Position numbers and translations under genes: made by a program. The notes beneath the pieces were generated by a model. That model did not search any database and was not told where the DNA came from. It saw only the letters and a list, made by a program, of their open reading frames with translations. A stretch of 64,000 bases of DNA from Verrucomicrobiia bacterium. Its GTDB lineage: Bacteria; Verrucomicrobiota; Verrucomicrobiia; Limisphaerales; UBA9464. Location of the stretch: the NCBI GenBank assembly GCA_019634635.1, contig JAHCBB010000006.1, positions 115,211 through 179,210 of the forward strand, given 5' to 3'. The stretch's first letter is position 1; each line of letters begins with the position of its first letter. Shown piece by piece: positions 6,507 through 61,184 of this stretch.

Positions 6507-7604
6507 TCAGTTGGCGCTGCCCACGGCATCCTCCCACCGCCCGCCGGCAAGCCGCTCGCGGAGGCCGTCCACGATCGTGCCCGCCAGGTCCGGGCCTTGG
6601 AAAACAAGTGCGGAGTAGAGTTGCAGGAGATTGGCGCCCGCGATGACCTTCTCCCAGGCATCTGCCGGGGACGAGATGCCGCCGACCGCGACCAGCGCGA
6701 GGCGACCCTGTGATTGCCGGTACAGGTGCCGGACCACTTCGGTGCTGCGCTGGCGCAGCGGGCGTCCGCTCAGGCCGCCGGTCTCGCGGTAGCGCGCGGC
6801 CAGGCCGGGATCCGCGGTCGCGGGCCGCTCGGTCGTGGTGTTGGTGGCCACCAGCCCCGCCACTCCACGCGCGAGCGCCACGTCCACGACCTCGTCGAGG
6901 GCATCCGGCGTGAGATCCGGCGCCACCTTGACCAGCACAGGCCGACGGGGGGCCGACGTGTCGGCGACATTGCGGGACTGGAGGGCGGCAAGGATTTCGT
7001 CGAGGGCGGCGCGGTCCTGCAGTCGTCGGAGGTTGGGTGTGTTGGGCGAACTCACGTTGACCACGAAAAAGTCGGCGAGCGTCCGGAGCGCGGCGAAGGA
7101 ATCCGCGTAGTCTGCGGCGGCTGCGTCCAGCGGAGTGATCTTCGATTTGCCGAGATTGATGCCCACCGGATGGGGTGGCCAGAGGTGGCGCCGTCGCCAG
7201 TCCTCAAGCCGCTGCGCGAGGGCGGGGGCTCCGGCGTTGTTGAACCCCATGCGGTTGATCAGCGCCTCCTCGGCGGCAATGCGGAACATGCGGGGCGGGG
7301 GGTTGCCCGGCTGCGCATGCCAGGTGATGCCACCCAGTTCCGAGAATCCGAACCCCAGAGCCTCCCACAGCGGCAGCGCGATCCCCTTTTTGTCCATGCC
7401 GGCGGCGAGTCCAACCGGGTTCGGAAAGGACAGCCCGAGACACCTCACCGGAAGTTCCGCGGGCCGGTACAGGGACCGGGTGAACGACAGCGCCGGACGC
7501 CAGCGGCTGGCGAGGGCGAGGGCGGCAAGGGTCCGGTTGTGAGCCGATTCCGCGTCCTGAAGAAACAGCAGCGGGCGGGCGACGCGGCGATAGAGCCAGC
7601 TCAT
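6507..7604 (-). CDS. pyrD: dihydroorotate dehydrogenase (quinone), class 2
   Basis: 365 aa. MSWLYRRVARPLLFLQDAESAHNRTL..., NPVGLAAGMDK, GFGFSELGGIT, NVSSPNTPNLR and GGLSGRPL are canonical PyrD class 2 motifs. Confidence 0.9.
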   Translation of the reverse strand: MSWLYRRVARPLLFLQDAESAHNRTLAALALASRWRPALSFTRSLYRPAELPVRCLGLSFPNPVGLAAGMDKKGIALPLWEALGFGFSELGGITWHAQPGNPPPRMFRIAAEEALINRMGFNNAGAPALAQRLEDWRRRHLWPPHPVGINLGKSKITPLDAAAADYADSFAALRTLADFFVVNVSSPNTPNLRRLQDRAALDEILAALQSRNVADTSAPRRPVLVKVAPDLTPDALDEVVDVALARGVAGLVATNTTTERPATADPGLAARYRETGGLSGRPLRQRSTEVVRHLYRQSQGRLALVAVGGISSPADAWEKVIAGANLLQLYSALVFQGPDLAGTIVDGLRERLAGGRWEDAVGSAN

Positions 7605-50434: not shown

Positions 50435-51874
50435 ATGGACCCGCTCTCCCGGATCGCCGCCATCCTGCCCTCGGATTGCTGGCTGACCGCTCCGGCGGAG
50501 CTGGCCACCTATGAGAGTGACGGGTTGACCGCGTTCCGGACGCGTCCGCTGGCGGTCGCGGTGCCCGGGACCACGGATGAGGTGATCGCGCTGGTACGGG
50601 CCTGCCGCGGGGCGGGCATCCCGTTTGTCGCCAGGGGCAGCGGCACGAGCCTGTCCGGGGGCTCCCTGCCGGTTGCCGGCGGGATCGTCATCGCCCTGAA
50701 CCGGTTGAACCGCATTCTGCGGCTGGATCCGGAAGACCGCACCGCGGTGGTTGAACCCGGGGTCATCAACAGCCAGGTCACCGCGGCCGCATCGCCCCAC
50801 GGGCTGCATTACGCCCCGGATCCATCGAGCCAATCCATCTGCACCATTGGCGGGAACGTCGCCTTCAACTCCGGCGGTGCGCACTGCCTCAAGTACGGCA
50901 TGACCGCCAATCATGTGCTGGGTCTGAAGGCGGTGCTGGGTTCGGGCGAGGTGGTCACCTGGGGCGGGAACGGCCGGGAGCGGATCGGCCCCGACTGGTG
51001 CGGGCTGTTTACCGGGCACGAGGGCCTGTTCGGTGTTGCCCTGGAGATCACCCTGCAGCTGCTGCCGCGCGCGGAGTGCTTTCACACGGTGCTGGCGGGC
51101 TACCGGACCTTGGAGCAGGCCGGCGACGCCGTCACCGCCGTGATTGCGGCCGGGCTGCTTCCCGGAGCGCTGGAGATCATGGATGCGCTGGCCTTGGAAG
51201 CCGCCCGGGCCGCGGTGCACTCGGAGTACCCGGCGGGTTGTGAGGCGGTGCTGATCGTGGAGCTGGAGGGCCCGCGGGAGACGGTCGCCGTGGAGCGGGA
51301 ACGTCTGGGGGAGATCCTGGCGGCGGGCGATCCGGTGGCGGTGCGGCCGGCCCGCGATGCCGCCGAGCGGCAGGCGATCTGGAGGGGACGCAAGAGCGCC
51401 TTCAGCGCGGTCGGGCGGTTGTCCCCGGATTTCATTGTGCAGGACGGGGTGGTCCCGCGCCGGCGACTGGGCGAGGCCCTGCGGCAGATTGCGGCCCTGT
51501 CGCGCGAATCCGGGCTGCGCATTGCCAATGTCTTCCACGCGGGTGACGGCAATCTGCATCCGCTGATTCTGTTCGATGGCCGGCAGCCCGGTGCGCTGGA
51601 GCGTGCGGAGGCGGTGGCGGGTCGGATCCTGAAGCTGTGTGTCGCCATGGGAGGCTCGATCACCGGAGAGCATGGCATTGGCGTCGAGAAGCGGGATTTT
51701 TTGAAGGACCTGTTCACGCCCGACGCGGTCGAGCTCCAAGAGCGGATCCGTGCCGCGTTTGATCCGGACGGTCTTTCCAACCCGGGCAAGATGTTCCCGG
51801 GCACAGGCCCGCCCGCCCTGGCCCATCGCGGACTGCATCCGCTGGAGGCCGCTGGCGTTGTCTCGCGGGAGTGA
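50435..51874 (+). CDS. glcD: FAD-linked oxidase, glycolate oxidase GlcD-like subunit
   Basis: 479 aa. The FAD-binding PCMH region has [15 protein letters not shown]-terminal [14 protein letters not shown]. Confidence 0.85.
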
Positions 51875-51992
51875 CGCCGGACTCCCGTCCGGGCGCAACA
51901 CGGTCTGCGGTCTGCGGATGCTGGGGCGACTGCGATCCTCGGGGCCTCCTGGGCAACGCCATTGCCTTCGGGTTCGACGTCGCTCTCCGGGA

Positions 51993-53537
51993 TCAGGTGC
52001 CTCCGGGCCCCTGGGATCCGCATGGGGCGGTGACCGGTTGCTCCGGATGGTCCACCAGATCTTCGACGAGGGCCTCCCAACGCTCGAGCCACCGGTCCAC
52101 GCGCTCCGCGTCGAACAGGTCCGTGCTGTAATCGGCCGTCACCCGCCACGCCCCGGGTGCCTGGGACCGCTCCACCGTCAGGGACAGGTCGAACTTGCTG
52201 GTGCCCGTGGTCACCGGCCACTCGGTGGCCTCCACGCCGGGAAGGCGCAGCACGGGCGCCAGCGGATCCCGGACGGAGAAGGTCTGGGTCACCAGGGGTT
52301 GGCGCGAGGTGTCGCGGGGAATCCGGAGCCGTTCCACGAGGCGCTCGAAGCGGAGGTCTTGATGTTCGTAGGCGTCGAGGGCGATGTCCCGGACCTGTTC
52401 GAGCAGGCCGCGTCCGGTCAGCCCGGCCGGGAACGGGATGCGCAGCGGGAGCGTATTGGCAAAGAATCCCACCGAAGGCTCGAATTCGACGCGCGAACGG
52501 CCCGCGATGGGAATCCCGATGATGACCTGTCGCAGGCCGGTCTCCCGATGGAGGAATAATGCGTGGGCCGCCAGCAGGTGCATGAACACGGTCGCGCCCT
52601 GCTCGCGAGCCCGGCCTTCGAGTGGAACCCGCCAGCGGGGGTTCAGGACCCGGACCCGGCGGTCGCCACGAAAGGAAGGCACGTCGGGGCGGGGTCGGTC
52701 CGCCGGCAGATCCAATGCCGGCAGGTCACCGGAAAGCTTCCCGGCCCACCACGACTCCTGGGCCTCGAGAACTGCGGCTCCCGGACCCTGTTCCTGCCAT
52801 GCCGCGACATCCGCCGGCTGCAGCGGCGGATCCGGCAGTTGGGCCGCACGACCGGCGGCCAGCGCGCCATAGCTGGTTGAGAGGTCCTGGAGAACATTCA
52901 ACAGCGAAGCGGCATCGGAGATGATGTGATGCAGCACCAGCAGCAGGGCGTGATCCTCCGGGCCCATTCGCACCAGCAGGACCCGGACGGGCGGCCCGGT
53001 TTCCAAGTCCATCGGCTGACGGACCGCGGCCTCGATCCATGCCCGGGCCACCGAAGGACGTTCTTCCGGCGGTCCGCTCTCCGCGACCGCCGTCTCGAGG
53101 ATCACCGTGGCATCCTGCGCGACGCGCTGAACGATGCCGGCGTCCTCCAGTCCGAACGTGGTCCGGAGGGCGTCGTGACGCCGGACGACTGCGGCCAGGG
53201 ATGCCTCCAGCCAGCGGACGTTCAAGGGCCCCCGCAGGCGGAACGCCGTGGGCACGAGGTAAACCGGGGATTCCGGAGCGAACTGATGAATGAACCACAT
53301 CCGCTGCTGGCCGCTGGTGGCGGGATGGACGCGGAGCGGCGGATCGTTTTCGACCCGGAGCGGATGAGCGCAGGGAATGGAGCGGAAGGGCGCCTCCGGA
53401 GTTTGATCGGTGCCGGACGATGCCACCGGGGCCCCCAGCCGCTGTCGCAGCAGGGCCGCCGCCGCGGGATCGAGTTGTGCGAGGCGCGACCGGACTTCGT
53501 CGGTCACGGATCGGGGGGGATCGGGGGGCGGGTTCAT
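51993..53537 (-). CDS. free-standing NRPS condensation (C) domain protein
   Basis: 514 aa. C1-like SGQQRMWFIHQ, C2-like RHDALRTTF, and catalytic HHIISDAASL (HHxxxD). Confidence 0.85.
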   Translation of the reverse strand: MNPPPDPPRSVTDEVRSRLAQLDPAAAALLRQRLGAPVASSGTDQTPEAPFRSIPCAHPLRVENDPPLRVHPATSGQQRMWFIHQFAPESPVYLVPTAFRLRGPLNVRWLEASLAAVVRRHDALRTTFGLEDAGIVQRVAQDATVILETAVAESGPPEERPSVARAWIEAAVRQPMDLETGPPVRVLLVRMGPEDHALLLVLHHIISDAASLLNVLQDLSTSYGALAAGRAAQLPDPPLQPADVAAWQEQGPGAAVLEAQESWWAGKLSGDLPALDLPADRPRPDVPSFRGDRRVRVLNPRWRVPLEGRAREQGATVFMHLLAAHALFLHRETGLRQVIIGIPIAGRSRVEFEPSVGFFANTLPLRIPFPAGLTGRGLLEQVRDIALDAYEHQDLRFERLVERLRIPRDTSRQPLVTQTFSVRDPLAPVLRLPGVEATEWPVTTGTSKFDLSLTVERSQAPGAWRVTADYSTDLFDAERVDRWLERWEALVEDLVDHPEQPVTAPCGSQGPGGT

Positions 53538-53555
53538 TGGCCGGTACTCGGGGCG

Positions 53556-55283
53556 TCACCACGACGCCGTCGGGGCGGCGTGCGGGTCCACCGGGACATG
53601 GATGCACGCGGGCCTTCCGGATTCGAGGGCGCGTTGCATTGCGGGGCGGAATTGGCGGGGCTCCGTGACGAATTCGGCATGGCCGCCAAACAGCGCCACC
53701 AACTGTTCATATCGCAGCCCGGGAACATAGCGGGTCACCCGTTCCGGGTGGTCCGGTGGGAACAACGCGTCATCCCGCAGGGCTCCGGTGTTGCCGTCGT
53801 TATTGGCCACCACAATCACCACCGGAAGGCGGTGACGCACGGCGGACTCAAGGTCCATGGCGCTCATCGCGAAGCCGGTGTCCCCGCACAATGCCACGAC
53901 GCGGCGTCCCGGCGATGCGACCTGCGCGCCGATGGCGAAGGGGATGCCGCCGCCGATGATCCCGTTCATCCCCGGATCCAGCCAGGTCAGGGGCTCGCGG
54001 ATCTTGAACAACCGCTGTGCGGCGCCAAGGCAGACGTTCCCTTCGGCGACCAGGAAGACGCCCGGTGGCAGGGCATCGCGAAGCGCCAGCACCAGTTCCC
54101 GGGGTGCCATGGGAGTGGATTGCCGCGACGCCTCGGAAGTTTCGGTCCGATCCCGCGCCTGACGGATGGCTTCGTGCCACCCGGAATGTGGATGAGGGGA
54201 TCTTGAAGCACCGTCCGCGGCGAGGGCGCGGGTCAGCGACCGGAGGAACACTCCGGGCTGCCCGACCCAGCCGATCGTCGCGGGCACGTTGAGCCCGATG
54301 GCCGGCCCGTCGAGATCGGCGTGGATGACGCAGGCACCGGCAGCCACGCCGCTGCCGAAACGGAAGCGCCAGTCCAGGGACGCGCCAGCGAGGAGCACCA
54401 CATCGGCTTCACCCTGGATCCATCGGCGGGCGGCCCCGGCGGCCAGCGGATGGTCGTCCGGGAGGTAGCCCCGGGCCAGCGATGTGGAGATGAATGGGAT
54501 TCCGTTGGCCTCGACGAACTCCCGGACGTCGGAGGCGTCCAGGGACCATCGCAGGCCGTCGCCCACGACGAGCAGGGGACGCCTGGACTCGCGAATCCGC
54601 CGACAGGCGGCATCCAGCAGGGATTCCTCCGGAGCGGCGGGGTGGGGCGGCGACGGAACCTCCGGCATTGCGCACGCTGCCGTCGCCGTCAGCACATCCT
54701 CCGCGAGGTCGAGATACACGGGGCCTGGACGGCCATCCATGGCCCTTGAACAGGCCTCGATCACGGTCTTCGGGATGTCTTCGCACCGTTGCGGCGTGGC
54801 GGTCCAGCGGGTCAATGAGCCGGTGATCGGCCGCGCATCCAACTCCTGAAATTGTCCCGTGCCGGCCCCGGACAGGGCGCGGCGTCCTCCGAGGACCACC
54901 ACGGGCCATCCGTTGTCCCGGGCGACGAGCAATCCGGTGAGCGTGTTGGTCACCGCGGGTCCCGCGGACACCACAACCACGGATTCCAGCCGCCCCGCCA
55001 CATAGTTGCCCGCAGCCGCCGCCAGCACCGCCGTCTGTTGATGGCGCATGCCCAGCACGCGGATTCCACGGGCGGCGCATTCGGCGAGGACGGCGTCCAC
55101 GGGCGTGCCGGCGACGGTGTACACCTGGCGGATGCCACAGCGTTGCAGCGCCGCCGCCGTCCAGCCACTGCCGGACAGGGCGCCTGGATACAGCCGTTGG
55201 CGGAGACGGGCGAGTGCCGTGGATGTCAGGCTGGCGAGACGCCCGGTCAGCGGGGGTACGGACGGGTTCATCGGCAGGGGCAT
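53556..55283 (-). CDS. thiamine-diphosphate-dependent enzyme (acetolactate synthase / oxalyl-CoA decarboxylase family)
   Basis: 575 aa. TPP-binding motif GDTGFAMSAMDLESAVRHRLPVVIVVANNDGN. The N-terminal PYR domain has VSAGPAVTN and GQFQELD. Confidence 0.85.
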   Translation of the reverse strand: MPLPMNPSVPPLTGRLASLTSTALARLRQRLYPGALSGSGWTAAALQRCGIRQVYTVAGTPVDAVLAECAARGIRVLGMRHQQTAVLAAAAGNYVAGRLESVVVVSAGPAVTNTLTGLLVARDNGWPVVVLGGRRALSGAGTGQFQELDARPITGSLTRWTATPQRCEDIPKTVIEACSRAMDGRPGPVYLDLAEDVLTATAACAMPEVPSPPHPAAPEESLLDAACRRIRESRRPLLVVGDGLRWSLDASDVREFVEANGIPFISTSLARGYLPDDHPLAAGAARRWIQGEADVVLLAGASLDWRFRFGSGVAAGACVIHADLDGPAIGLNVPATIGWVGQPGVFLRSLTRALAADGASRSPHPHSGWHEAIRQARDRTETSEASRQSTPMAPRELVLALRDALPPGVFLVAEGNVCLGAAQRLFKIREPLTWLDPGMNGIIGGGIPFAIGAQVASPGRRVVALCGDTGFAMSAMDLESAVRHRLPVVIVVANNDGNTGALRDDALFPPDHPERVTRYVPGLRYEQLVALFGGHAEFVTEPRQFRPAMQRALESGRPACIHVPVDPHAAPTASW

Positions 55284-55324
55284 GTACCGCAGGCGGGTTC
55301 CGAGGGGGCCAATCCGCAGCCGGA

Positions 55325-57319
55325 TCAGGTGTGATGTCCGGGCGCGGCGCCTGGAGCCTCGTCGCCCAGACCCCGCAGCAGGGCCTCTTGTTCGGCAGGG
55401 GGCCGGCGGGCGATTTCCGCCGCAAGGCCATCAATCAACGCCTCACGCATCTGATCGAGTGCGACCGCGAACCGGGCGACCACGGGATTTCGAAACAGCG
55501 TTGCGGGCGGTATGTCGAACCCGAGGTGGGGTTGCAGCCGGTTGAGCACCCGGGTCGCGCGCAGCGAGTCGCCACCCAGTGCGAAGAAGTTGTCCATCCG
55601 CCCGACGCGCGGTTGTTCCAGCACCGCGGCAAATGCCCCGGCCACCTGTTGTTCCATCGGGGTCGCGGGTTCGGCGAAGGGCGCGGACAGCGCCGCGGCG
55701 AAGCGGTCGGCAAGGCCCGTCCGCTGGAGCTTTCCCGTCGCCCCCTTGGGCAGGGCTTCAACGAGGAGGATCCGGCCGGGCACCTTGAACGCCGGCAATC
55801 GGCCGAACGCGTGGAGGCGCAGGGCCTCCTCGGTGAGGCGCGCTCCCGGTTGCGGAACGACGGCGGCTGCCACGTCCTCACCCAGCGTGGGGTGCGGCAC
55901 CGCAAACGCGACCGCCTCGGCCACCCCGTCAACGGCGAGCAGCACCTCGTCCACTTCGCGTGGTGCGATCTTTTCGCCCCCGCGGTTGATGAGGTCCTTC
56001 AACCGGCCGGTGAGGAACAGGTAGCCGTCGGCGTCGAGACGCCCCTGGTCCCCGGTTCGAAACCATCCGCCAACCCATGCCGTTGCGTTGTCTGTGGCCT
56101 CCTCGTAGCCGCGGGTGACGGACGGACCACGAATGACGACCTCACCCACGACCTCGGGCGGCAGGAGGTCCCCGGCGGGGCCCAGGATCGCCACTTCCGG
56201 GCCGGCGGCGGGTCCGACCGATCCGGGTTTGCGCGGGCGGGGAGGCAGGGGATTGCTCGCCATCTGGTGCGCGGCCTCCGTCATGCCGTACGACTCAATG
56301 ACCGGCACACCGAACGTCTCCTCCAATCCCATCATCAGGCTTGGGGGCAGCGCGGCCGAGGAGGAGCGGATGAGACGGAGCGTGTGGCGTCCGCCGGGCC
56401 CCCCGGCGGCCCGTACCCGGGACAGGATCGTTTGATGAAGGGTGGGTACTGCCGAGTACCAGGTGGGTTCCCATTGCTTCAGGGCGTCGAGAAATGCGTC
56501 GGCATCCGGCCGATCCGGGCAGACCACGCTGCCCGCCGATACGATCGGGGCGAGCAGGCCCGCGACCAGGCCGTGAATGTGGAAAAGCGGCATCAGGTTG
56601 AGGCATCGGTCGTCGGGTCCGAGCCGGAGGGTTTCGCCAATGGCCCGGGCCGACGCCAGCAGGTTGGCCTGCGTGAGCGGAACTCGCTTGGGTCGCGACG
56701 TGGTGCCCGAAGTGTGCAGCACCAGGGCCACATCCTCCGCCGATCCGGGCGTCCCCGACACGACCGGGGTCGGTGGCGCTTCCGGCAGGGAAAGCGAGGG
56801 GAACCGGGCGGGGTCCGATCGAAGCCGGAGGACCTCGATGCCCAGCCGGATCGCGAGGTCCCGGGCGGTGTCCGACTCCGCAAAAGCATCCGAGGCGATC
56901 AGACGGCGCGCCCCGAGGCTTTGCAGTTGAAACTCGAGGTCGGCGGGCGGCGCCTGGGAGTTGACGGGGGCGGCCACGGACCAGGAGGCCACGGCGAGAA
57001 AGGCCAGCGCCAGCTCCGGACCTTGCGGAATTGCCAGCGCCACCCGGTCCTGCGGTCCGATGCCCAGGCGACGCAATGTGGCGCCGAACTCCGCAACGAA
57101 ATCCCAGAGGCGATCGTACGACAGCGGCTCCCGGTGGGGGCCCAGCACTGCGGAACGGCCGGGGTGTTGAAGGGCGGTGCTGGACAGCACCGCTGCCAGG
57201 GAGGTCTCCGGGTTGAGGCCGGTGATGGGATCCCGCGCCGGGGGAACCTGCGAGGTGGGTGATGCCGAAGGCGTGCGGTCCACCCGGAGGAGCCTATGGG
57301 GTTTCCGATTCCGGCGCAT
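55325..57319 (-). CDS. adenylation (AMP-binding) domain fused to a peptidyl/acyl carrier protein domain (A-T didomain)
   Basis: Contains LHTSGTTSRPKRV and TGDQGRLDADGYLFLTGRLKDLINRGGEKI. The carrier site is FFALGGDSLRATRV. The start is uncertain: ATG candidates at 57415, 57379, 57355 and 57319, of which I list 57319. Confidence 0.85.
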   Translation of the reverse strand: MRRNRKPHRLLRVDRTPSASPTSQVPPARDPITGLNPETSLAAVLSSTALQHPGRSAVLGPHREPLSYDRLWDFVAEFGATLRRLGIGPQDRVALAIPQGPELALAFLAVASWSVAAPVNSQAPPADLEFQLQSLGARRLIASDAFAESDTARDLAIRLGIEVLRLRSDPARFPSLSLPEAPPTPVVSGTPGSAEDVALVLHTSGTTSRPKRVPLTQANLLASARAIGETLRLGPDDRCLNLMPLFHIHGLVAGLLAPIVSAGSVVCPDRPDADAFLDALKQWEPTWYSAVPTLHQTILSRVRAAGGPGGRHTLRLIRSSSAALPPSLMMGLEETFGVPVIESYGMTEAAHQMASNPLPPRPRKPGSVGPAAGPEVAILGPAGDLLPPEVVGEVVIRGPSVTRGYEEATDNATAWVGGWFRTGDQGRLDADGYLFLTGRLKDLINRGGEKIAPREVDEVLLAVDGVAEAVAFAVPHPTLGEDVAAAVVPQPGARLTEEALRLHAFGRLPAFKVPGRILLVEALPKGATGKLQRTGLADRFAAALSAPFAEPATPMEQQVAGAFAAVLEQPRVGRMDNFFALGGDSLRATRVLNRLQPHLGFDIPPATLFRNPVVARFAVALDQMREALIDGLAAEIARRPPAEQEALLRGLGDEAPGAAPGHHT

Positions 57320-57548
57320 CCACGGAATGCCCTTCGCCACGCGCGCGCTTGCCATCGGGGACTTGAGCCATGGAACCATCACGCGCTTCGCGGCGATGAA
57401 CGATCTCAGCGGCAAGGTGCTTCAATTCCAGAAGAGGCGGCACCGGCATCAGGAATGGATCCGGTTTCTGGGAGGCAAGGATCCTGCTTGACTTTCCTTC
57501 GCGGATGGCAGCAACTCGTTTCGACAACCTCAAACCGAACGTGAACTT

Positions 57549-57623
57549 CCCCGGCCCGACCTCTCCCCGGCCCGACCTCTCCCCGGCCCGACCTCTCCCC
57601 GGCCCGACCTCTCCCCGGCCCGA
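57549..57623. repeat. perfect 16-bp tandem repeat, 4 full copies plus an 11-nt partial copy
   Basis: ccccggcccgacctct occurs at 57549, 57565, 57581 and 57597, then ccccggcccga at 57613-57623. No mismatches. Confidence 0.97.
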
Positions 57624-57755
57624 GGAACCATCCTTCTGTTAGCAGCACTCCTGGCAGGAGTTGCTCTCCAGGCTCAACAAGAACGCTGGACTTCGCCAAA
57701 CGGCACTGGTGACGGAACAAGCACCAACGCGCCGAAGAAGTTCACCAACCTTGCG

Positions 57756-60700
57756 GTGAACGAGTGGCTCGATCAGACGAATGCGCTTCCGAATCTGACG
57801 ATCTACTTCCTCCCTGGAGACTACATGGTGGGTGGCACCAACAAGGGCCATACTAGCACCTCGGACGCGATCTGGATCAAGGGAAACACCAACCGAATCG
57901 TGCGCCTTGTGGGCATTCCCGACGCCAACGGCATTCGTCCACGGCTGGTGTTGGGGCCGCGGTCAGACACCAATAGCTGGCCCAATGAAAATTCCGCCCA
58001 CCAGTGGTTGATTCGCGTTGGTGCCTCAGGGACTCCCCTTAAGAACTTCTACCTCGACACCATCCAGGTCGAGAACCTCGTCCTGGATGGCAACTTTGGG
58101 GGCTTGGGAGCGTGGACCTCAGAGGCCAACGCCGGCGGCTATAAATCCTTTGCCCTCGATCTGGCGGCTTTCCGAGGCAGGGTTCGCAACGTCCTCATCC
58201 AGAACTTCGGTTCCGTCGGAAAGGTTCCCCTATCCCATCTCGACGGATTCGGGGGTGTGGAGGGATTCCCGGTTTTCATCCATACCTTTGATGACGGACA
58301 GGCCAATTTTCCGGGTGCCCCCGCGCCCTGGATCATCGAGGACGTCGAGGTTTCGAATTTCGGGGCACTCCATGCGGGATACTCGACAATCCTCATGCCC
58401 CACGTGTACCGAAATTCCAATGCACCCAGCACCACCCCGGTGGCCATCGTAAGACGATGCCAGGTGCGGGGCAATCCACGAACCATCGGGTCGGGCACCG
58501 GAGGTCGCTCGAGCGAATACCCCACGATCGCCAACTGGACCAATCACGCGGCCTTTACCGCCTCGGGCCGGATTCTCTTTGAGGACAATGTCTTCCTCAA
58601 CGTGGGCAGCGGGTTCAATTTGGACACCGGGACCCTCGGACCGCTGGTTTGGAACAACAACGCGTTTCTGGATGCAACGGTGCTTGGCTTTTTGGGAATT
58701 CCGGACAATTGGGGAGACCCCACCCAGAGGGGCCTCTTCGTCACCAACAACCTCATCCGGCTCGCGGGAAGAAATTTTCACCAGAATTACAGCGACATCT
58801 GCATAAACGATCCCGAAACCGCCCAGACCAACCCGAACTTGGGGCTGGGCCGGATCGAGACCAACGACTGCCATGGTCTCATCATCCGCGGTCGTGCGGG
58901 CGATGTGCATTTTCAGCACAACGACCTGACCACCTGGCCCCTGGCCAGCTTTTTCCGCCCAGATCCGGGTAACAGCGGGCAGTCCGTTTTCCGCCCCATC
59001 TGGAAGATTCCGACACTGTCGAACATCAACTGTTCCATTTATTCGCGGACCCGGGAGCCGGTGACCAACATGGTGCTCACCGCCAACCGGCTCTCGACGG
59101 TTGGCTATGACGTCACCAGTCCGACCCTTCTGCCCACCGCGACGTACGCATCCTTCACCCCCACATCGGCACCCCTGTACAACGACCTCCGAACCGCTGT
59201 ATCGCCCTCACCGGGCGGCTTCCAGCCTGCCGGCCGCCTGGAGCGGGTCGGCATGATCACCAATGGCTCCGGCCGCCTGACGGCCGTCCGGGAAGTGCAG
59301 ATCGGCCAGACCTCGTACTCAACCACCAACAACGGCACCCTCACGGTCGTCGTCCGAGTCGCCGATCAGCGCCTGGCTGCCGGTGGGGTGACCGGAACGC
59401 TGCCGGTTTCCGGGGTCTCGTTGAGACTGACCAACGCCATCATTCACCCCAATGGGAGCGTCACCAGCCATCTCATCGCGCAGACCAGCACCAACAATGG
59501 AACGGCAACGTTCACCCTCTCCAATCTGGCCGGGATCCACGGGATGTGCCGCCTGGCGGCCTTTGCGGATCTGGGAGCCGCCAACGGGCTGCTGGATCCC
59601 GATCGCGATGCCTGGTCCAGCCACAGTTTTCCCCTGGGAACAACGGTTGAACTGACCGCAAGTCCGGACGTGGGCGATGACAAGAATACGGCCTCCGCAA
59701 AGCGGGCCCGCATCCGCGTGCGTCGCAGCGGTCCCACCAGCAGCTCCCTTTCGGTCAACCTCTCCCTCCATTCGGGCGTGTTCGTTCGTCCCAACAATTT
59801 GAGCGATCTTGCGGCGACCTACGGGACTTCGGGCACCGCCGATTACTACATTTCCAACGGCACCGGCACCTGGTCCACCAGCAGCCCGTTCACCAACGGC
59901 ACCATCACCATCCCGGCGGGCAGCGACACCGCGGACGTGCAGATCGTCACCCGTGAGGACAACCTGACCGAGCAGAACATCATCGTGGCCCGCCTGGCCC
60001 TCTCTGCAAACTACGCGCCCGGGCTGTCCACCAACGTGCATGTCCTGATCTTTGACGGGCCGATGTGGACCCTCAAAGAGCTTTCCACTGATAACTCCGG
60101 ATACTATACAATTAATTCCCAAGCATACGCTCTGAATGACCTCAACGGGAGCACCCAACCCCGGGCGGCTGGTTTCGGTGATTTCGGCACCCTCAGCGGT
60201 ACCAACCTGATCTATGTTGCCTCGCGAGGAGGCCACTGGCAGCTTCCAAACGTGGCGTTCAACCCCATTGAGGATATGCAGTACTATGGGATCAGCACCG
60301 CCCCAATTCACCTGGTAGGGGGGGTGGGAAGCAATGCGCGCGTCCGGGTGCTTGGAGGTTCCGCAACTAATCTGCCCCACCTCTCCAGCGGTCCGAGCAC
60401 CGCATGGGGCATTGTCTCCAATGCAGCCTTGATCGTCGGGAGGAGCCGCAATGCGAACTCCACAAGTCGTCCAACCACCTGGGTGTGGGCCTCAACAAAC
60501 ACGGGCTATACACCGTTTGATGTCGGAGGCAATCTTAACAGTAGTTGGCCCGGGGAGGCATATGGCGCAAATTTAAACAACCAGGTAATCGGAGAACTTC
60601 GTGTGACCTACCAGAGCGGCCTGTCGAACTACGTGGCATTTCGCAGCCAAGCAGGCACGAGCGTCAAGGGCCTTGAGTTTAATCCGTCCGACGGTGCCGG

Positions 60701-61184
60701 CGATATTTTAAGAGCCCCCGGAACGAGTGGGGGTCAGAATCTCAAATCCAGAGGCACAGCGGTCAATAGTTCGGGTCACGCAGTGGGGTGGTATGAAACC
60801 GACTCGGCAGTAAGACGGGCGGTCTATTGGCCGAGTTCTGGATTGGGATCCCAGTCCAGTTCATTGGATCTTAATGCTTGGAAAGCTCGTATTGGTACAT
60901 CTGAAGACTCCCGAAGTTCTGCAAACGCCATCTCCAGTTCTGGTTGGATTGCAGGCTGGTCAAATACAAATAATTCACCTGGAAGAGCAGTGCTCAAAAG
61001 AAGTCCAAACGCCAGTGCGACCGACTGGGTTGATTTGAATGACCCGCACTTCACTCATGCCCCAAGTGGATGGATTCTGAAGGACGCGTCAGGCATAAAT
61101 GCCTCGGGCCAAATTGTCGGGAATGGGTTGTTTAATGGAAGCCAGCGCGCGTTTGTATTAATTCCAAGGACCTCTGGAAATTAG
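57756..61184 (+). CDS. large secreted/surface protein: N-terminal right-handed beta-helix-like region, central Calx-beta-like segment, C-terminal HAF-type repeats; 5' end unresolved
   Basis: 1142-aa track ORF from GTG 57756. The frame stays open upstream to 57492 and encodes a signal-peptide core at 57621-57689, but there is no in-frame start there. C-terminal repeats (AYALNDLNG, AYGANLNNQVIGE, GTAVNSSGHAVGW, ASGINASGQIVGNG...RAFVL) resemble the HAF extracellular repeat. Confidence 0.75.
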   Translation: MNEWLDQTNALPNLTIYFLPGDYMVGGTNKGHTSTSDAIWIKGNTNRIVRLVGIPDANGIRPRLVLGPRSDTNSWPNENSAHQWLIRVGASGTPLKNFYLDTIQVENLVLDGNFGGLGAWTSEANAGGYKSFALDLAAFRGRVRNVLIQNFGSVGKVPLSHLDGFGGVEGFPVFIHTFDDGQANFPGAPAPWIIEDVEVSNFGALHAGYSTILMPHVYRNSNAPSTTPVAIVRRCQVRGNPRTIGSGTGGRSSEYPTIANWTNHAAFTASGRILFEDNVFLNVGSGFNLDTGTLGPLVWNNNAFLDATVLGFLGIPDNWGDPTQRGLFVTNNLIRLAGRNFHQNYSDICINDPETAQTNPNLGLGRIETNDCHGLIIRGRAGDVHFQHNDLTTWPLASFFRPDPGNSGQSVFRPIWKIPTLSNINCSIYSRTREPVTNMVLTANRLSTVGYDVTSPTLLPTATYASFTPTSAPLYNDLRTAVSPSPGGFQPAGRLERVGMITNGSGRLTAVREVQIGQTSYSTTNNGTLTVVVRVADQRLAAGGVTGTLPVSGVSLRLTNAIIHPNGSVTSHLIAQTSTNNGTATFTLSNLAGIHGMCRLAAFADLGAANGLLDPDRDAWSSHSFPLGTTVELTASPDVGDDKNTASAKRARIRVRRSGPTSSSLSVNLSLHSGVFVRPNNLSDLAATYGTSGTADYYISNGTGTWSTSSPFTNGTITIPAGSDTADVQIVTREDNLTEQNIIVARLALSANYAPGLSTNVHVLIFDGPMWTLKELSTDNSGYYTINSQAYALNDLNGSTQPRAAGFGDFGTLSGTNLIYVASRGGHWQLPNVAFNPIEDMQYYGISTAPIHLVGGVGSNARVRVLGGSATNLPHLSSGPSTAWGIVSNAALIVGRSRNANSTSRPTTWVWASTNTGYTPFDVGGNLNSSWPGEAYGANLNNQVIGELRVTYQSGLSNYVAFRSQAGTSVKGLEFNPSDGAGDILRAPGTSGGQNLKSRGTAVNSSGHAVGWYETDSAVRRAVYWPSSGLGSQSSSLDLNAWKARIGTSEDSRSSANAISSSGWIAGWSNTNNSPGRAVLKRSPNASATDWVDLNDPHFTHAPSGWILKDASGINASGQIVGNGLFNGSQRAFVLIPRTSGN

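Follow-up and report, generated by a model that had tools for sequence, protein, structure and literature searches.

What would a cassette of only three genes of nonribosomal peptide synthetase (NRPS) type be for? The question is raised by a stretch of 64,000 nucleotides from a Verrucomicrobiia bacterium (assembly GCA_019634635.1, contig JAHCBB010000006.1, positions 115,211 to 179,210), which is referred to here as the window. Its minus strand encodes an adenylation (A) domain fused to a peptidyl carrier protein (PCP), an enzyme dependent on thiamine diphosphate (ThDP), and a free-standing condensation (C) domain. Large NRPS clusters have an initiation unit that is conserved and widespread, and the cassette formed by these genes is its minimal form. 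With moderate confidence, we propose that the trio would act in trans as a minimal NRPS-type initiation unit that uses oxalate. The genes are as follows.

55325..57415, minus strand: gene 1, A-PCP; the longest open reading frame (ORF), 696 codons from TTG
53556..55283, minus strand: gene 2, ThDP enzyme of 575 aa, from an NRPS-associated clade of the oxalyl-coenzyme A (CoA) decarboxylase (OXC)/2-hydroxyacyl-CoA lyase (HACL) family
51993..53537, minus strand: gene 3, free-standing C-domain protein of 514 aa

A preliminary description of this DNA had reported three co-directional minus-strand genes with gaps of 41 and 18 bp, and the ORF coordinates agree, the gaps being 55284–55324 between genes 1 and 2 and 53538–53555 between genes 2 and 3. 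Its domain calls (A-PCP, 575-aa ThDP enzyme, and stand-alone C) are also those of Pfam, at scores far beyond chance, and the motifs that it quoted, LHTSGTTSRPKRV, GRLKDLINRGGEKI, GGDSL, GDTGF...NNDGN, and HHIISDA, were all found.

The A-PCP protein and the distribution of the trio

Pfam places in gene 1 an AMP-binding domain (residues 80–437, 245 bits), an AMP-binding_C domain (487–562, 57 bits), and a PP-binding domain (590–650, 45 bits). The core motifs of NRPS A domains, including the A10 lysine, are present, and LHTSGTTSRPK and PKGATGKLQR are seen along with LHTSGTTSRPKRV, GRLKDLINRGGEKI, and GGDSL. When the protein was compared with all PDB sequences, the top three matches were oxalate–CoA ligases, namely AAE3 of Arabidopsis (5ie0, 376 bits), LsOCS of grass pea (6qjz, 374 bits), and 8aff (312 bits), which we take to be yeast Pcs60. 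The next match, the linear gramicidin synthase 6mfz, scored 193 bits. Several A-PCP homologs are annotated by JGI as "oxalate---CoA ligase". In AtAAE3, oxalate is contacted by Ser289, His319, and Lys500, of which Ser289 and His319 are specific to oxalyl-CoA synthetases (PMC8905533). A HMMER alignment matches these residues to Ser353, His383, and Lys562 of the window ORF, and in an alignment of 121 A-PCP sequences the Ser is conserved in 121/121, the His in 118/121, and the Lys in 121/121. Three neighboring pocket positions differ from the plant enzymes throughout the family (Val→Ile, Cys→Ser, and Ala→Gly). The preliminary description had likened the A domain to ligases of the oxalate or short-acyl-CoA type, and the top PDB matches together with the conserved oxalate contacts strongly bear out its prediction, on sequence grounds, as an oxalate-type domain. 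The FadD7-family equivalog NF004511 is the top NCBIfam match, yet its 425.6 bits fall short of the cut-off of 650, and the gene 1 product is therefore termed oxalate-ligase-like rather than a member of the equivalog.

56261..56371, minus strand: acyl-pocket residues of the A domain, IRS-S-S-AAL (Ser353) and YGMTEAAH (His383)
55562..55576, minus strand: phosphopantetheine attachment site GGDSL (Ser617)

The carrier domain is fused to the A domain in 120/120 homologs among the matches listed, and the carrier Ser, which the preliminary description had singled out as a point on which its reading might fail, is invariant in 121/121 homologs. The fusion argues for self-loading of A-PCP rather than for free CoA as the thiol acceptor. 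Residue numbers of gene 1 (Ser353, His383, Lys562) are those of the longest window ORF. The true start is probably the ATG at 57355 (M21) or a later codon, since DNA homology with L008, a relative that is 94% identical, begins at ~57367, inside the longest ORF, and the N-termini of homologs align to residue 21 or to residues 62–76. One A-PCP homolog, P0303 (869 aa), carries a fused thioesterase (TE) domain (A-PCP-TE), which is another architecture of the family.

Among related loci, numbered with the prefix L, the trio of A-PCP, ThDP enzyme, and C is present in L007, L008, L010–L012, and L013, amid unrelated flanks, and an A-PCP/C pair without the ThDP gene occurs in L001–L003 and L004–L006. 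Relatives of the ThDP enzyme at 40–59% identity are numerous. In the three of their loci that were inspected, the gene belongs to a large NRPS cluster, and the order is always A-PCP, then ThDP enzyme, and then C. A scan of a metagenome collection with the alignment of the ThDP clade then yielded 80 loci, whose neighbors were mapped by tblastn. An A domain was called oxalate-type at ≥40% identity to the window A domain, a level to be compared with the ~25% of the ordinary A domains of those loci. By this measure, an oxalate-type A(-PCP) lies directly upstream on the same strand in 36/36 distinct loci having more than 2.2 kb upstream, and a C domain lies directly downstream of the ThDP gene in 39 of the 42 loci having more than 1.5 kb downstream. 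Usually this C domain comes first in a multi-module NRPS; in at least 21 loci it is followed by an A domain, the opening of a normal NRPS module. Given this linkage, the word "orphan" used in the preliminary description does not hold. Co-occurrence of the three genes, which it had also raised, stands insofar as they are linked in many loci, but not throughout, since some relatives do without the ThDP gene. The named relatives are metagenome-assembled genomes (MAGs) of Verrucomicrobiota, Planctomycetota, and Thermodesulfovibrionales; the remaining loci are unclassified metagenome contigs. Several arrangements differ from that of the window, as follows.

L177 (Planctomycetota): A-PCP, ThDP enzyme, fragmented C, and PCP-TE
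L178 and L179: A-PCP, lyase, and multi-module NRPS, with the ThDP enzyme absent; in L179 the NRPS is C-A-T-C-A-T and is accompanied by a phosphopantetheinyl transferase (PPTase)
L099, 5995–9704: oxalate-type A-PCP and ThDP enzyme, with no C domain within 8 kb downstream

The unit in L099 has as neighbors a polysaccharide-biosynthesis (flippase-like) protein and two methyltransferases of FkbM type. Genes or domains of this methyltransferase type (PF05050) recur near the unit in three clusters that are otherwise unlike, at L093 14782–17262, L095 3037–3696, and L099 3877–5931. The FkbM name suggests that they may be O-methyltransferases, and they may act on the starter unit.

The lyase of L178 and L179 belongs to the phosphoenolpyruvate (PEP)-mutase/isocitrate-lyase family, and such a gene adjoins the unit in L093, L095/L100, L101, L103, L106, L109, and L118 as well. 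In the PDB, the L093 and L095 copies match petal death protein at 120–131 bits, 2,3-dimethylmalate lyase at 117–122, oxaloacetate acetylhydrolase at 104–117, and PEP mutases at ~60–77. Members of the petal death protein/oxaloacetate acetylhydrolase branch cleave oxaloacetate to oxalate and acetate. The lyase is thus a plausible source of oxalate for the unit. Its presence in L178 and L179, which have no ThDP gene, indicates that it goes with the substrate of A-PCP and not with a co-substrate of the ThDP enzyme. The window has no lyase gene by tblastn over its 64 kb. A phosphonate pathway (PepM/Ppd), which the combination of a PEP-mutase-family neighbor and a ThDP enzyme might bring to mind, was rejected for two reasons: the lyases favor petal death protein, oxaloacetate acetylhydrolase, and 2,3-dimethylmalate lyase (117–131 bits) over PEP mutases, and the ThDP enzyme is of the full three-domain OXC/HACL type.

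The ThDP enzyme, the C protein, and the docking-type motifs

The gene 2 product contains the Pfam domains TPP_enzyme_N, TPP_enzyme_M, and TPP_enzyme_C and has the three-domain ThDP fold with the GDG...NN motif of OXC. A sequence search of the PDB gave 270–281 bits for HACL and the related 2-hydroxyacyl-CoA synthases (HACS; together HACL/S), 204–235 bits for OXC, ~180 bits for the actinobacterial 2-hydroxyisobutyryl-CoA lyase, and at most 162 bits for acetolactate synthase (ALS)/acetohydroxyacid synthase (AHAS). The AlphaFold2 (AF2) model (pLDDT 84.9) ranks the folds similarly in Foldseek, with ApbHACS (8vza, TM 0.87) best, followed by RuHACL (6xn8), then OXCs, then benzaldehyde lyase and AHAS. 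Scores against NCBIfam models are below cut-off, for OXC (NF006721, 311 against 557; TIGR03254, 288 against 739), for HACL (NF058623, 246 against 600), and for "acetolactate synthase" (PRK05858, 323 bits against 587). The preliminary description had assigned the enzyme to a family spanning ALS and oxalyl-CoA decarboxylase; sequence and predicted fold both place it in the OXC/HACL branch of that family and not in the ALS branch. A protein from a Verrucomicrobiae MAG, P0079, is 100% identical to it.

When compared with E. coli OXC and with the HACL structures, the clade shows six differences, which are the N-terminus, the C-terminus, a Phe-Gln pair, a deletion, an Arg→Gln change, and a Glu→Gln change. 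The corresponding features of the window enzyme are the following.

55191..55250, minus strand: N-terminal extension LTGRLASLTSTALARLRQRL, outside the region aligned with HACL/OXC and absent from E. coli OXC
55035..55046, minus strand: RHQQ, with Gln82 (codon 55038–55040) at the position of the canonical ThDP-activating Glu, E54 in the FRHEQ of E. coli OXC
53790..53885, minus strand: ThDP-Mg motif GDTGF...NNDGN; D468, N494, N495, and G497 are each conserved in 121/121
53559..53591, minus strand: C-terminus VDPHAAPTASW-stop, ending where the active-site lid of OXC/HACL begins

The N-terminal extension of the clade is ~30 residues long, with the motif L..RL..L(S/P)....A.L..R, and the AF2 model of gene 2 predicts helices in it at residues 12–17 and 21–31. 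At the other end, the OXC of E. coli runs on with GTESGHITKLNPKQVAGN past the end of gene 2, and 72/121 clade members terminate in Trp. In the active site, Phe145-Gln146 stands in place of the Tyr120-Glu121 of OXC in 121/121 clade members, and a 3-residue deletion relative to the NNGGIYRG of OXC takes away the Tyr483 position. The activating Glu was located from E. coli OXC E54 and HMMER alignments, since the "E50" of the HACS paper does not map by the +6 offset that fits four Arg residues.

All substrates known for HACL/S and OXC are oxalyl-, formyl-, or 2-hydroxyacyl-thioesters (PMC8760513, PMC11271303). Whether the thioester here is borne by CoA or by a carrier bears on the residues that would contact CoA. 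ApbHACS binds acyl-CoA through R260 and R400 (PMC11271303). The R400 equivalent is Gln in 119/121 clade members, the R260 equivalent is kept as Arg in 117/121, and the ADP-site Arg (R276 equivalent) is variable, so that this set of residues is partly informative. The N-terminal extension, the truncated lid, and the change of R400 to Gln would fit a carrier-bound substrate rather than a CoA-bound one.

The C protein has a Pfam Condensation domain at residues 71–503 (299 bits), and its stop codon lies a few residues past the domain end. Its best PDB matches are LCL-type C domains, those of TycC (2jgp), Txo1, and Txo2, with 218 bits for LCL-type against 143 bits for PvdL, which bears on the question of subtype raised in the preliminary description. 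The best NCBIfam stretch is residues 677–1104 of PRK05691, presumably a PvdL-like first C domain, and with the solved PvdL chains the match falls over the first C region, 561–989. The closest relatives are free-standing C proteins of Verrucomicrobiota MAGs, at 45–52% identity. C is encoded alone, without a fused carrier or A domain, in the window, L007, L008, L010, and L013. In a neighbor-joining tree, the true free-standing C proteins (window, L008, L007, L013, L010, and L001) form one deep clade; the set was defined by a reading frame that stops just past the domain, L001 excepted, as its count is anomalous. This clade is sister to a group containing C-A fusions, and the closest relatives that do not stand alone are fused to A-PCP modules. 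C domains of clusters with and without the ThDP gene intermix in the tree. A scan of the contigs of genomes with the C protein found only generic NRPS C domains, at ≤42% identity, and no relatives of the cassette.

The ORFs of all three genes are intact, and dN/dS against L008 is 0.20 for A-PCP, 0.33 for the ThDP enzyme, and 0.21 for C, with 0.14 for the neighboring glcD. The cassette genes are under purifying selection. Taken with the depth of the stand-alone C clade, the low dN/dS indicates that the stand-alone state is old and maintained. In L008 itself, a C-run within the A domain (~6720–6746) is one nucleotide shorter, which splits the gene call to 478 aa; since the contig has 3.9x coverage, this may be either an assembly error or a real frameshift.

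How would three separate proteins find one another? Candidate contacts are provided by the following segments, listed here with the catalytic motif of the C domain.

53436..53495, minus strand: motif VRSRLAQLDPAAAALLRQRL at the N-terminus of the C protein, of the type also seen at the N-terminus of the ThDP enzyme
55367..55444, minus strand: conserved C-terminal tail of A-PCP, EALIDGLAAEIARRPPAEQEALLRGL, a putative docking helix (family example, EIDALAAELEKLPPEERARLLNDL)
52911..52931, minus strand: catalytic motif HHIISDA of the C domain, with both His and the Asp kept

A docking hidden Markov model (HMM) was built from the N-terminal motif of 71 ThDP-clade proteins, and 2740 shuffles served as the control. 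The N-terminus of the window C protein scores 16.4 bits with this model, above the shuffle maximum of 12.1 (n=2740), and 9 of 13 full-length C N-termini exceed the same 12.1 bits. In the window C protein, helices are predicted at residues 11–20 and 24–35, with a disordered linker after them. The tails of A-PCP score a median of 9.5 bits and at the top 17.0, with the shuffle maximum again 12.1. We suggest that the two-helix motif common to the ThDP enzyme, the C protein, and the A-PCP tail is a putative docking element.

A natural experiment is provided by L001, which is syntenic with L010 (aconitase, HNH, A-PCP) but is without the ThDP gene. The first 28 residues of the L001 C protein match the start of the L010 ThDP enzyme (14/28 identical, E 1e-6), and beyond residue 28 the protein has its own N-terminal motif; the stretches compared are L001 10001–10090 and L010 8271–8354. 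This suggests an in-frame deletion in L001 between two repeated docking-motif segments, and, so read, the locus supports the homology of the docking motifs. A different trace is seen in L004 (9746–9928), as also in L005 and L006, where a 61-aa remnant of the ThDP gene, at 48% identity, lies in the 459-bp gap between A-PCP and C. From the L001 deletion and the L004–L006 remnant it follows that loss of the ThDP step is derived and has occurred more than once.

Proposed mechanism and its alternatives

The steps proposed here are inferred throughout, the first from sequence and the second from family, gene order, and clade-specific features. In step 1, the A domain would adenylate oxalate and load its own phosphopantetheine arm, giving oxalyl-S-PCP. 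In step 2, the ThDP enzyme would dock on A-PCP via its N-terminal helices, ThDP would add to the thioester carbonyl, as it does in OXC and HACL with CoA thioesters, and the oxalyl group would be decarboxylated. Our first choice is that the resulting ThDP-bound formyl-thioester carbanion would be protonated to give formyl-S-PCP; alternatively, an aldehyde or ketone could capture it, so that a 2-hydroxyacyl-S-PCP would form. The slight lean to formyl comes from the fact that the three-gene cassette then needs no further substrate. In step 3, the C domain, with its N-terminus of the same docking type, would transfer the acyl group to an amine, and an N-acyl product would be released. In most related clusters, the acceptor would be the aminoacyl-S-PCP of the next NRPS module; for the stand-alone Verrucomicrobial C, it would perhaps be a free amine or a carrier encoded elsewhere. 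The ThDP-less relatives would make N-oxalyl products directly. The idea that the ThDP enzyme works on a carrier-tethered substrate before transfer by C was already put forward in the preliminary description, and it fits all of the context evidence.

Several findings weigh against an oxalate-using initiation unit of this kind. The main reason for caution on the proposed chemistry is Gln82. Of the ThDP decarboxylase superfamily, 94% have the cofactor-activating Glu; the known exception is glyoxylate carboligase, which has Val and is active without the canonical Glu (PMC3534367). The context of the Glu is FRHEQ in E. coli OXC and MRHEM and MRNEQ in two HACS structures, and in this clade Gln takes its place in 119/119 members having a residue there, which could mean slow, altered, or no catalysis. 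Moreover, Tyr483 and Ser553 of OXC hydrogen-bond the oxalyl carboxylate (PMC8760513). Both are missing here, and a Phe-Gln pair of HACL/ALS type replaces Tyr-Glu, so that plain OXC-like decarboxylation with protonation is not assured; a formyl and a 2-hydroxyacyl product would look alike in sequence. The ThDP gene has been lost in L001 and L004 and hence is dispensable for the A-PCP/C pair. The C motif, which the preliminary description had called intact, keeps both His and the Asp but is slightly degenerate in the window and L008 lineage, and only there it reads HHIISDAAS, against HHIxSDGWS in the family (Gly→Ala, Trp→Ala). A tblastn search of the 64-kb window, for which A, PCP, C, ThDP-enzyme, lyase, PPTase, and PCP-TE sequences served as queries, brought up no other NRPS component: no acceptor carrier or module, no thioesterase, and no PPTase, the last being a weak test that rests on one PPTase query; the same parts had been listed as missing in the preliminary description. 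Finally, the sequences miss every NCBIfam equivalog cut-off, whether for FadD7, OXC, or HACL.

Much of this bears on a first alternative, in which loading is the same and the ThDP enzyme is a decarboxylative carboligase, so that the carbanion attacks an aldehyde, ketone, or 2-oxo acid and C transfers a 2-hydroxyacyl-S-PCP starter. It differs from the proposal above only in chemical outcome, and we regard it as possible, if doubtful. The HACL-like active site and the missing OXC proton-relay residues make carboligation a serious alternative. The site is like that of HACL/S rather than OXC, with its invariant Phe145-Gln146; it lacks the Tyr and Ser with which OXC binds the oxalyl carboxylate; and the best fold matches are HACL and the synthases. 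In MeOXC, the engineered changes Y497F and S568G gave better condensation (PMC8760513), and the residues so changed are the carboxylate-binding pair that is missing here. The FkbM-type methyltransferases near the unit in L093, L095, and L099, if they are O-methyltransferases, could cap the new hydroxyl. On the other hand, the unit has no conserved companion gene that would provide a carbonyl co-substrate, and nothing else is attached to the three-gene cassette. The intermixing of C domains from clusters with and without the ThDP gene also means that a big change of donor is not obviously required. It is tempting, though only as a tentative idea, to see in oxalyl-S-carrier a decarboxylative donor of a formyl anion, with which a Gln-activated, carrier-dependent ThDP clade would build 2-hydroxyacyl starters. 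If true, this would be the umpolung counterpart of the malonyl-based decarboxylative Claisen condensation of polyketide and fatty acid synthases.

It is improbable, in our judgment, that the ThDP-like protein is inactive, or a scaffold or gatekeeper, and that the product is N-oxalyl as in the ThDP-less relatives. The substitution of Gln for the activating Glu would agree with this, as would the existence of ThDP-less clusters that keep the same A-PCP and C. Yet the ThDP-Mg residues are invariant in 121/121 members, dN/dS of the gene is 0.33, and glyoxylate carboligase works without that Glu (PMC3534367). An invariant Gln, moreover, is not what drift would leave and points to a functional residue.

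Equally unlikely is a change at the loading step, whereby a small acid other than oxalate (glyoxylate, glycolate, malonate, or a 2-hydroxy acid) is loaded by the A domain and the ThDP enzyme serves either as an ALS-like carboligase or as a lyase with 2-hydroxyacyl-S-PCP as its substrate. The shortfall against the FadD7 cut-off, the three altered pocket positions, and the HACL-like ThDP active site could each be cited for it. The residues specific to oxalyl-CoA synthetases are nevertheless kept in 118–121 of 121 members, and lyases resembling oxaloacetate hydrolase go with A-PCP. With the plant oxalate ligase, malonate and succinate are disfavored by four orders of magnitude, and glycolate and lactate give no activity (PMC8905533).

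Still less credible is the view that the cassette, left over from a larger NRPS cluster whose downstream modules are gone, is decaying and makes no product. It draws on the lack of an acceptor module, thioesterase, and PPTase in the window, on the partly degenerate C motif of the window/L008 lineage, on the reduction of the ThDP gene to a remnant in L004–L006 and its deletion in L001, and on the 1-nt A-domain deletion of L008, albeit in a contig of 3.9x coverage. However, the three ORFs are intact with dN/dS of 0.20–0.33, and the stand-alone C clade, 45–52% identical to the window protein, is still full length with the docking motif.

Carrier-based primary catabolism of oxalate to formate and CO2, in place of secondary metabolism, would echo the same two enzyme families that in the same order degrade oxalate via CoA thioesters in plants, yeast, and bacteria, but is very improbable, given that at least 21 loci have the unit at the head of multi-module NRPS genes, that catabolism has no use for a C domain, and that no formyl-CoA transferase or formate dehydrogenase is linked.

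Related systems and the surroundings of the cassette

The closest known process is CoA-dependent oxalate degradation, in which AAE3/LsOCS/Pcs60 is followed by OXC, the same two families in the same order. Shared with the ligase are its oxalate-binding Ser, His, and Lys, and with the decarboxylase the three-domain ThDP fold and GDG...NN. The cassette differs in that the thiol would be that of a fused carrier, a C domain follows, and the output would be an amide rather than formate. In contrast to OXC itself, the ThDP enzyme has a docking-type N-terminal extension, a truncated lid, Gln for Glu, and none of Tyr120/Glu121, Tyr483, and Ser553. HACL and HACS are the closest matches in sequence and fold, and the Phe-Gln pair and the R260-equivalent Arg are common to both. 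Identity to them is ~30%, however, and the enzyme differs in the Gln for Glu, the Gln at the R400 equivalent, the variable ADP-site Arg, the short lid, and in being always encoded between A-PCP and a C domain.

In the route to β-N-oxalyl-L-α,β-diaminopropionic acid (β-ODAP) of grass pea, an AAE3-type ligase activates oxalate and an amine is then N-acylated (PMC8905533). This is the best analogy for the ThDP-less relatives, although the pathway is that of a plant, keeps its intermediate on CoA, and involves neither a carrier protein nor a ThDP enzyme. Acylation there is carried out by an oxalyl-CoA-dependent BAHD acyltransferase. A stand-alone C domain that takes its acyl group from a separate carrier is known from vibriobactin biosynthesis (VibE/VibB/VibH), and no acceptor carrier is needed there. 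The donor in that case is 2,3-dihydroxybenzoyl and there is no ThDP step, whereas the window C is nearest to LCL-type domains of multi-module proteins. An NRPS initiation unit with an acyl-ligase-type A domain is a known design; in module 1 of PvdL, too, an acyl-ligase-like A domain and a carrier feed the first C domain, but the starter is a fatty acid and no tailoring enzyme stands between loading and condensation. A formyl thioester on a carrier protein is used by the lactacystin assembly line (LctF/LctA AT1-ACP1) as its starter (PMC11730586). There, 10-formyl-tetrahydrofolate supplies the formyl group by way of formyl-CoA and an acyltransferase domain, and a ketosynthase uses it; the source proposed here is oxalate, via the A domain and the ThDP enzyme, with the C domain as the user.

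The preliminary description could not match the trio to a characterized pathway, and searches of the accessible literature, with subscription-only papers outside the scope, likewise found none, nor anything on oxalyl-carrier proteins, oxalate-primed NRPSs, or OXC/HACL-like enzymes in NRPS clusters. Neither the proposed oxalate starter unit nor the presence of an OXC/HACL-type enzyme between loading and condensation turned up in the accessible papers. If the proposal is true, oxalate would be an NRPS starter, and N-oxalyl, N-formyl, or 2-hydroxyacyl caps would be drawn from a central metabolite. ThDP enzymes of the OXC/HACL family would act on a carrier-bound thioester, of which we found no description. 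Since OXC/HACL enzymes are currently of interest for one-carbon bioconversion, the clade would offer a natural, docking-equipped, carrier-dependent version. It would also be the second natural ThDP group without the activating Glu, after glyoxylate carboligase, here with an invariant Gln. The unit heads many uncharacterized NRPS clusters, and its three-gene Verrucomicrobial form is the smallest system for reconstituting the chemistry.

The surroundings of the cassette are as the preliminary description had them, with a convergent glcD on one side and a divergent gene on the other, confirmed by ORF positions and family searches.

50435–51874, plus strand: glcD, the convergent flank
57756–61184, plus strand: ORF of 1142 aa, the divergent flank, with no Pfam or NCBIfam family match

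On the glcD side, the plus strand also carries a class-V aminotransferase and prolyl-tRNA synthetase. A functional partnership with glcD was rejected, since the gene is convergent and the 94%-identical relative is the only one in which it is linked. An Rfam scan of 51700–57900 gave nothing at E ≤ 1, a sigma-70 promoter scan gave zero sites, and terminator-like sites are no more frequent than in shuffles; the operon boundaries thus rest on spacing.

The flanks of stand-alone cassettes have nothing in common except, in one Verrucomicrobial sub-group, a co-directional gene of the HNH endonuclease family (197–207 aa) that lies ~48 bp upstream of A-PCP. It is present in L001 (7427–8050), L002, L003, L010 (5694–6317), and L011, and is absent from the window. 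No neighbor conserved among these cassettes points to an acceptor for the C domain.

The divergent intergenic region upstream of the A-PCP gene contains, at 57548–57623, a perfect 16-bp tandem repeat of TCCCCGGCCCGACCTC (4.8 copies, 100% matches), just beyond the end of the homology with L008 (~57367). Next to it, the segment 57756–62000 has a GC content of 57–62%, against 65–70% in the rest of the window, and comprises the 1142-aa ORF, which is rich in Ser, Thr, Asn, and Gly, and a 258-aa ORF without a Pfam match. On this side, L008 has a xanthine/uracil permease and a glyoxalase in place of the window ORFs, and the segment 57756–62000 looks like a strain-specific insertion.

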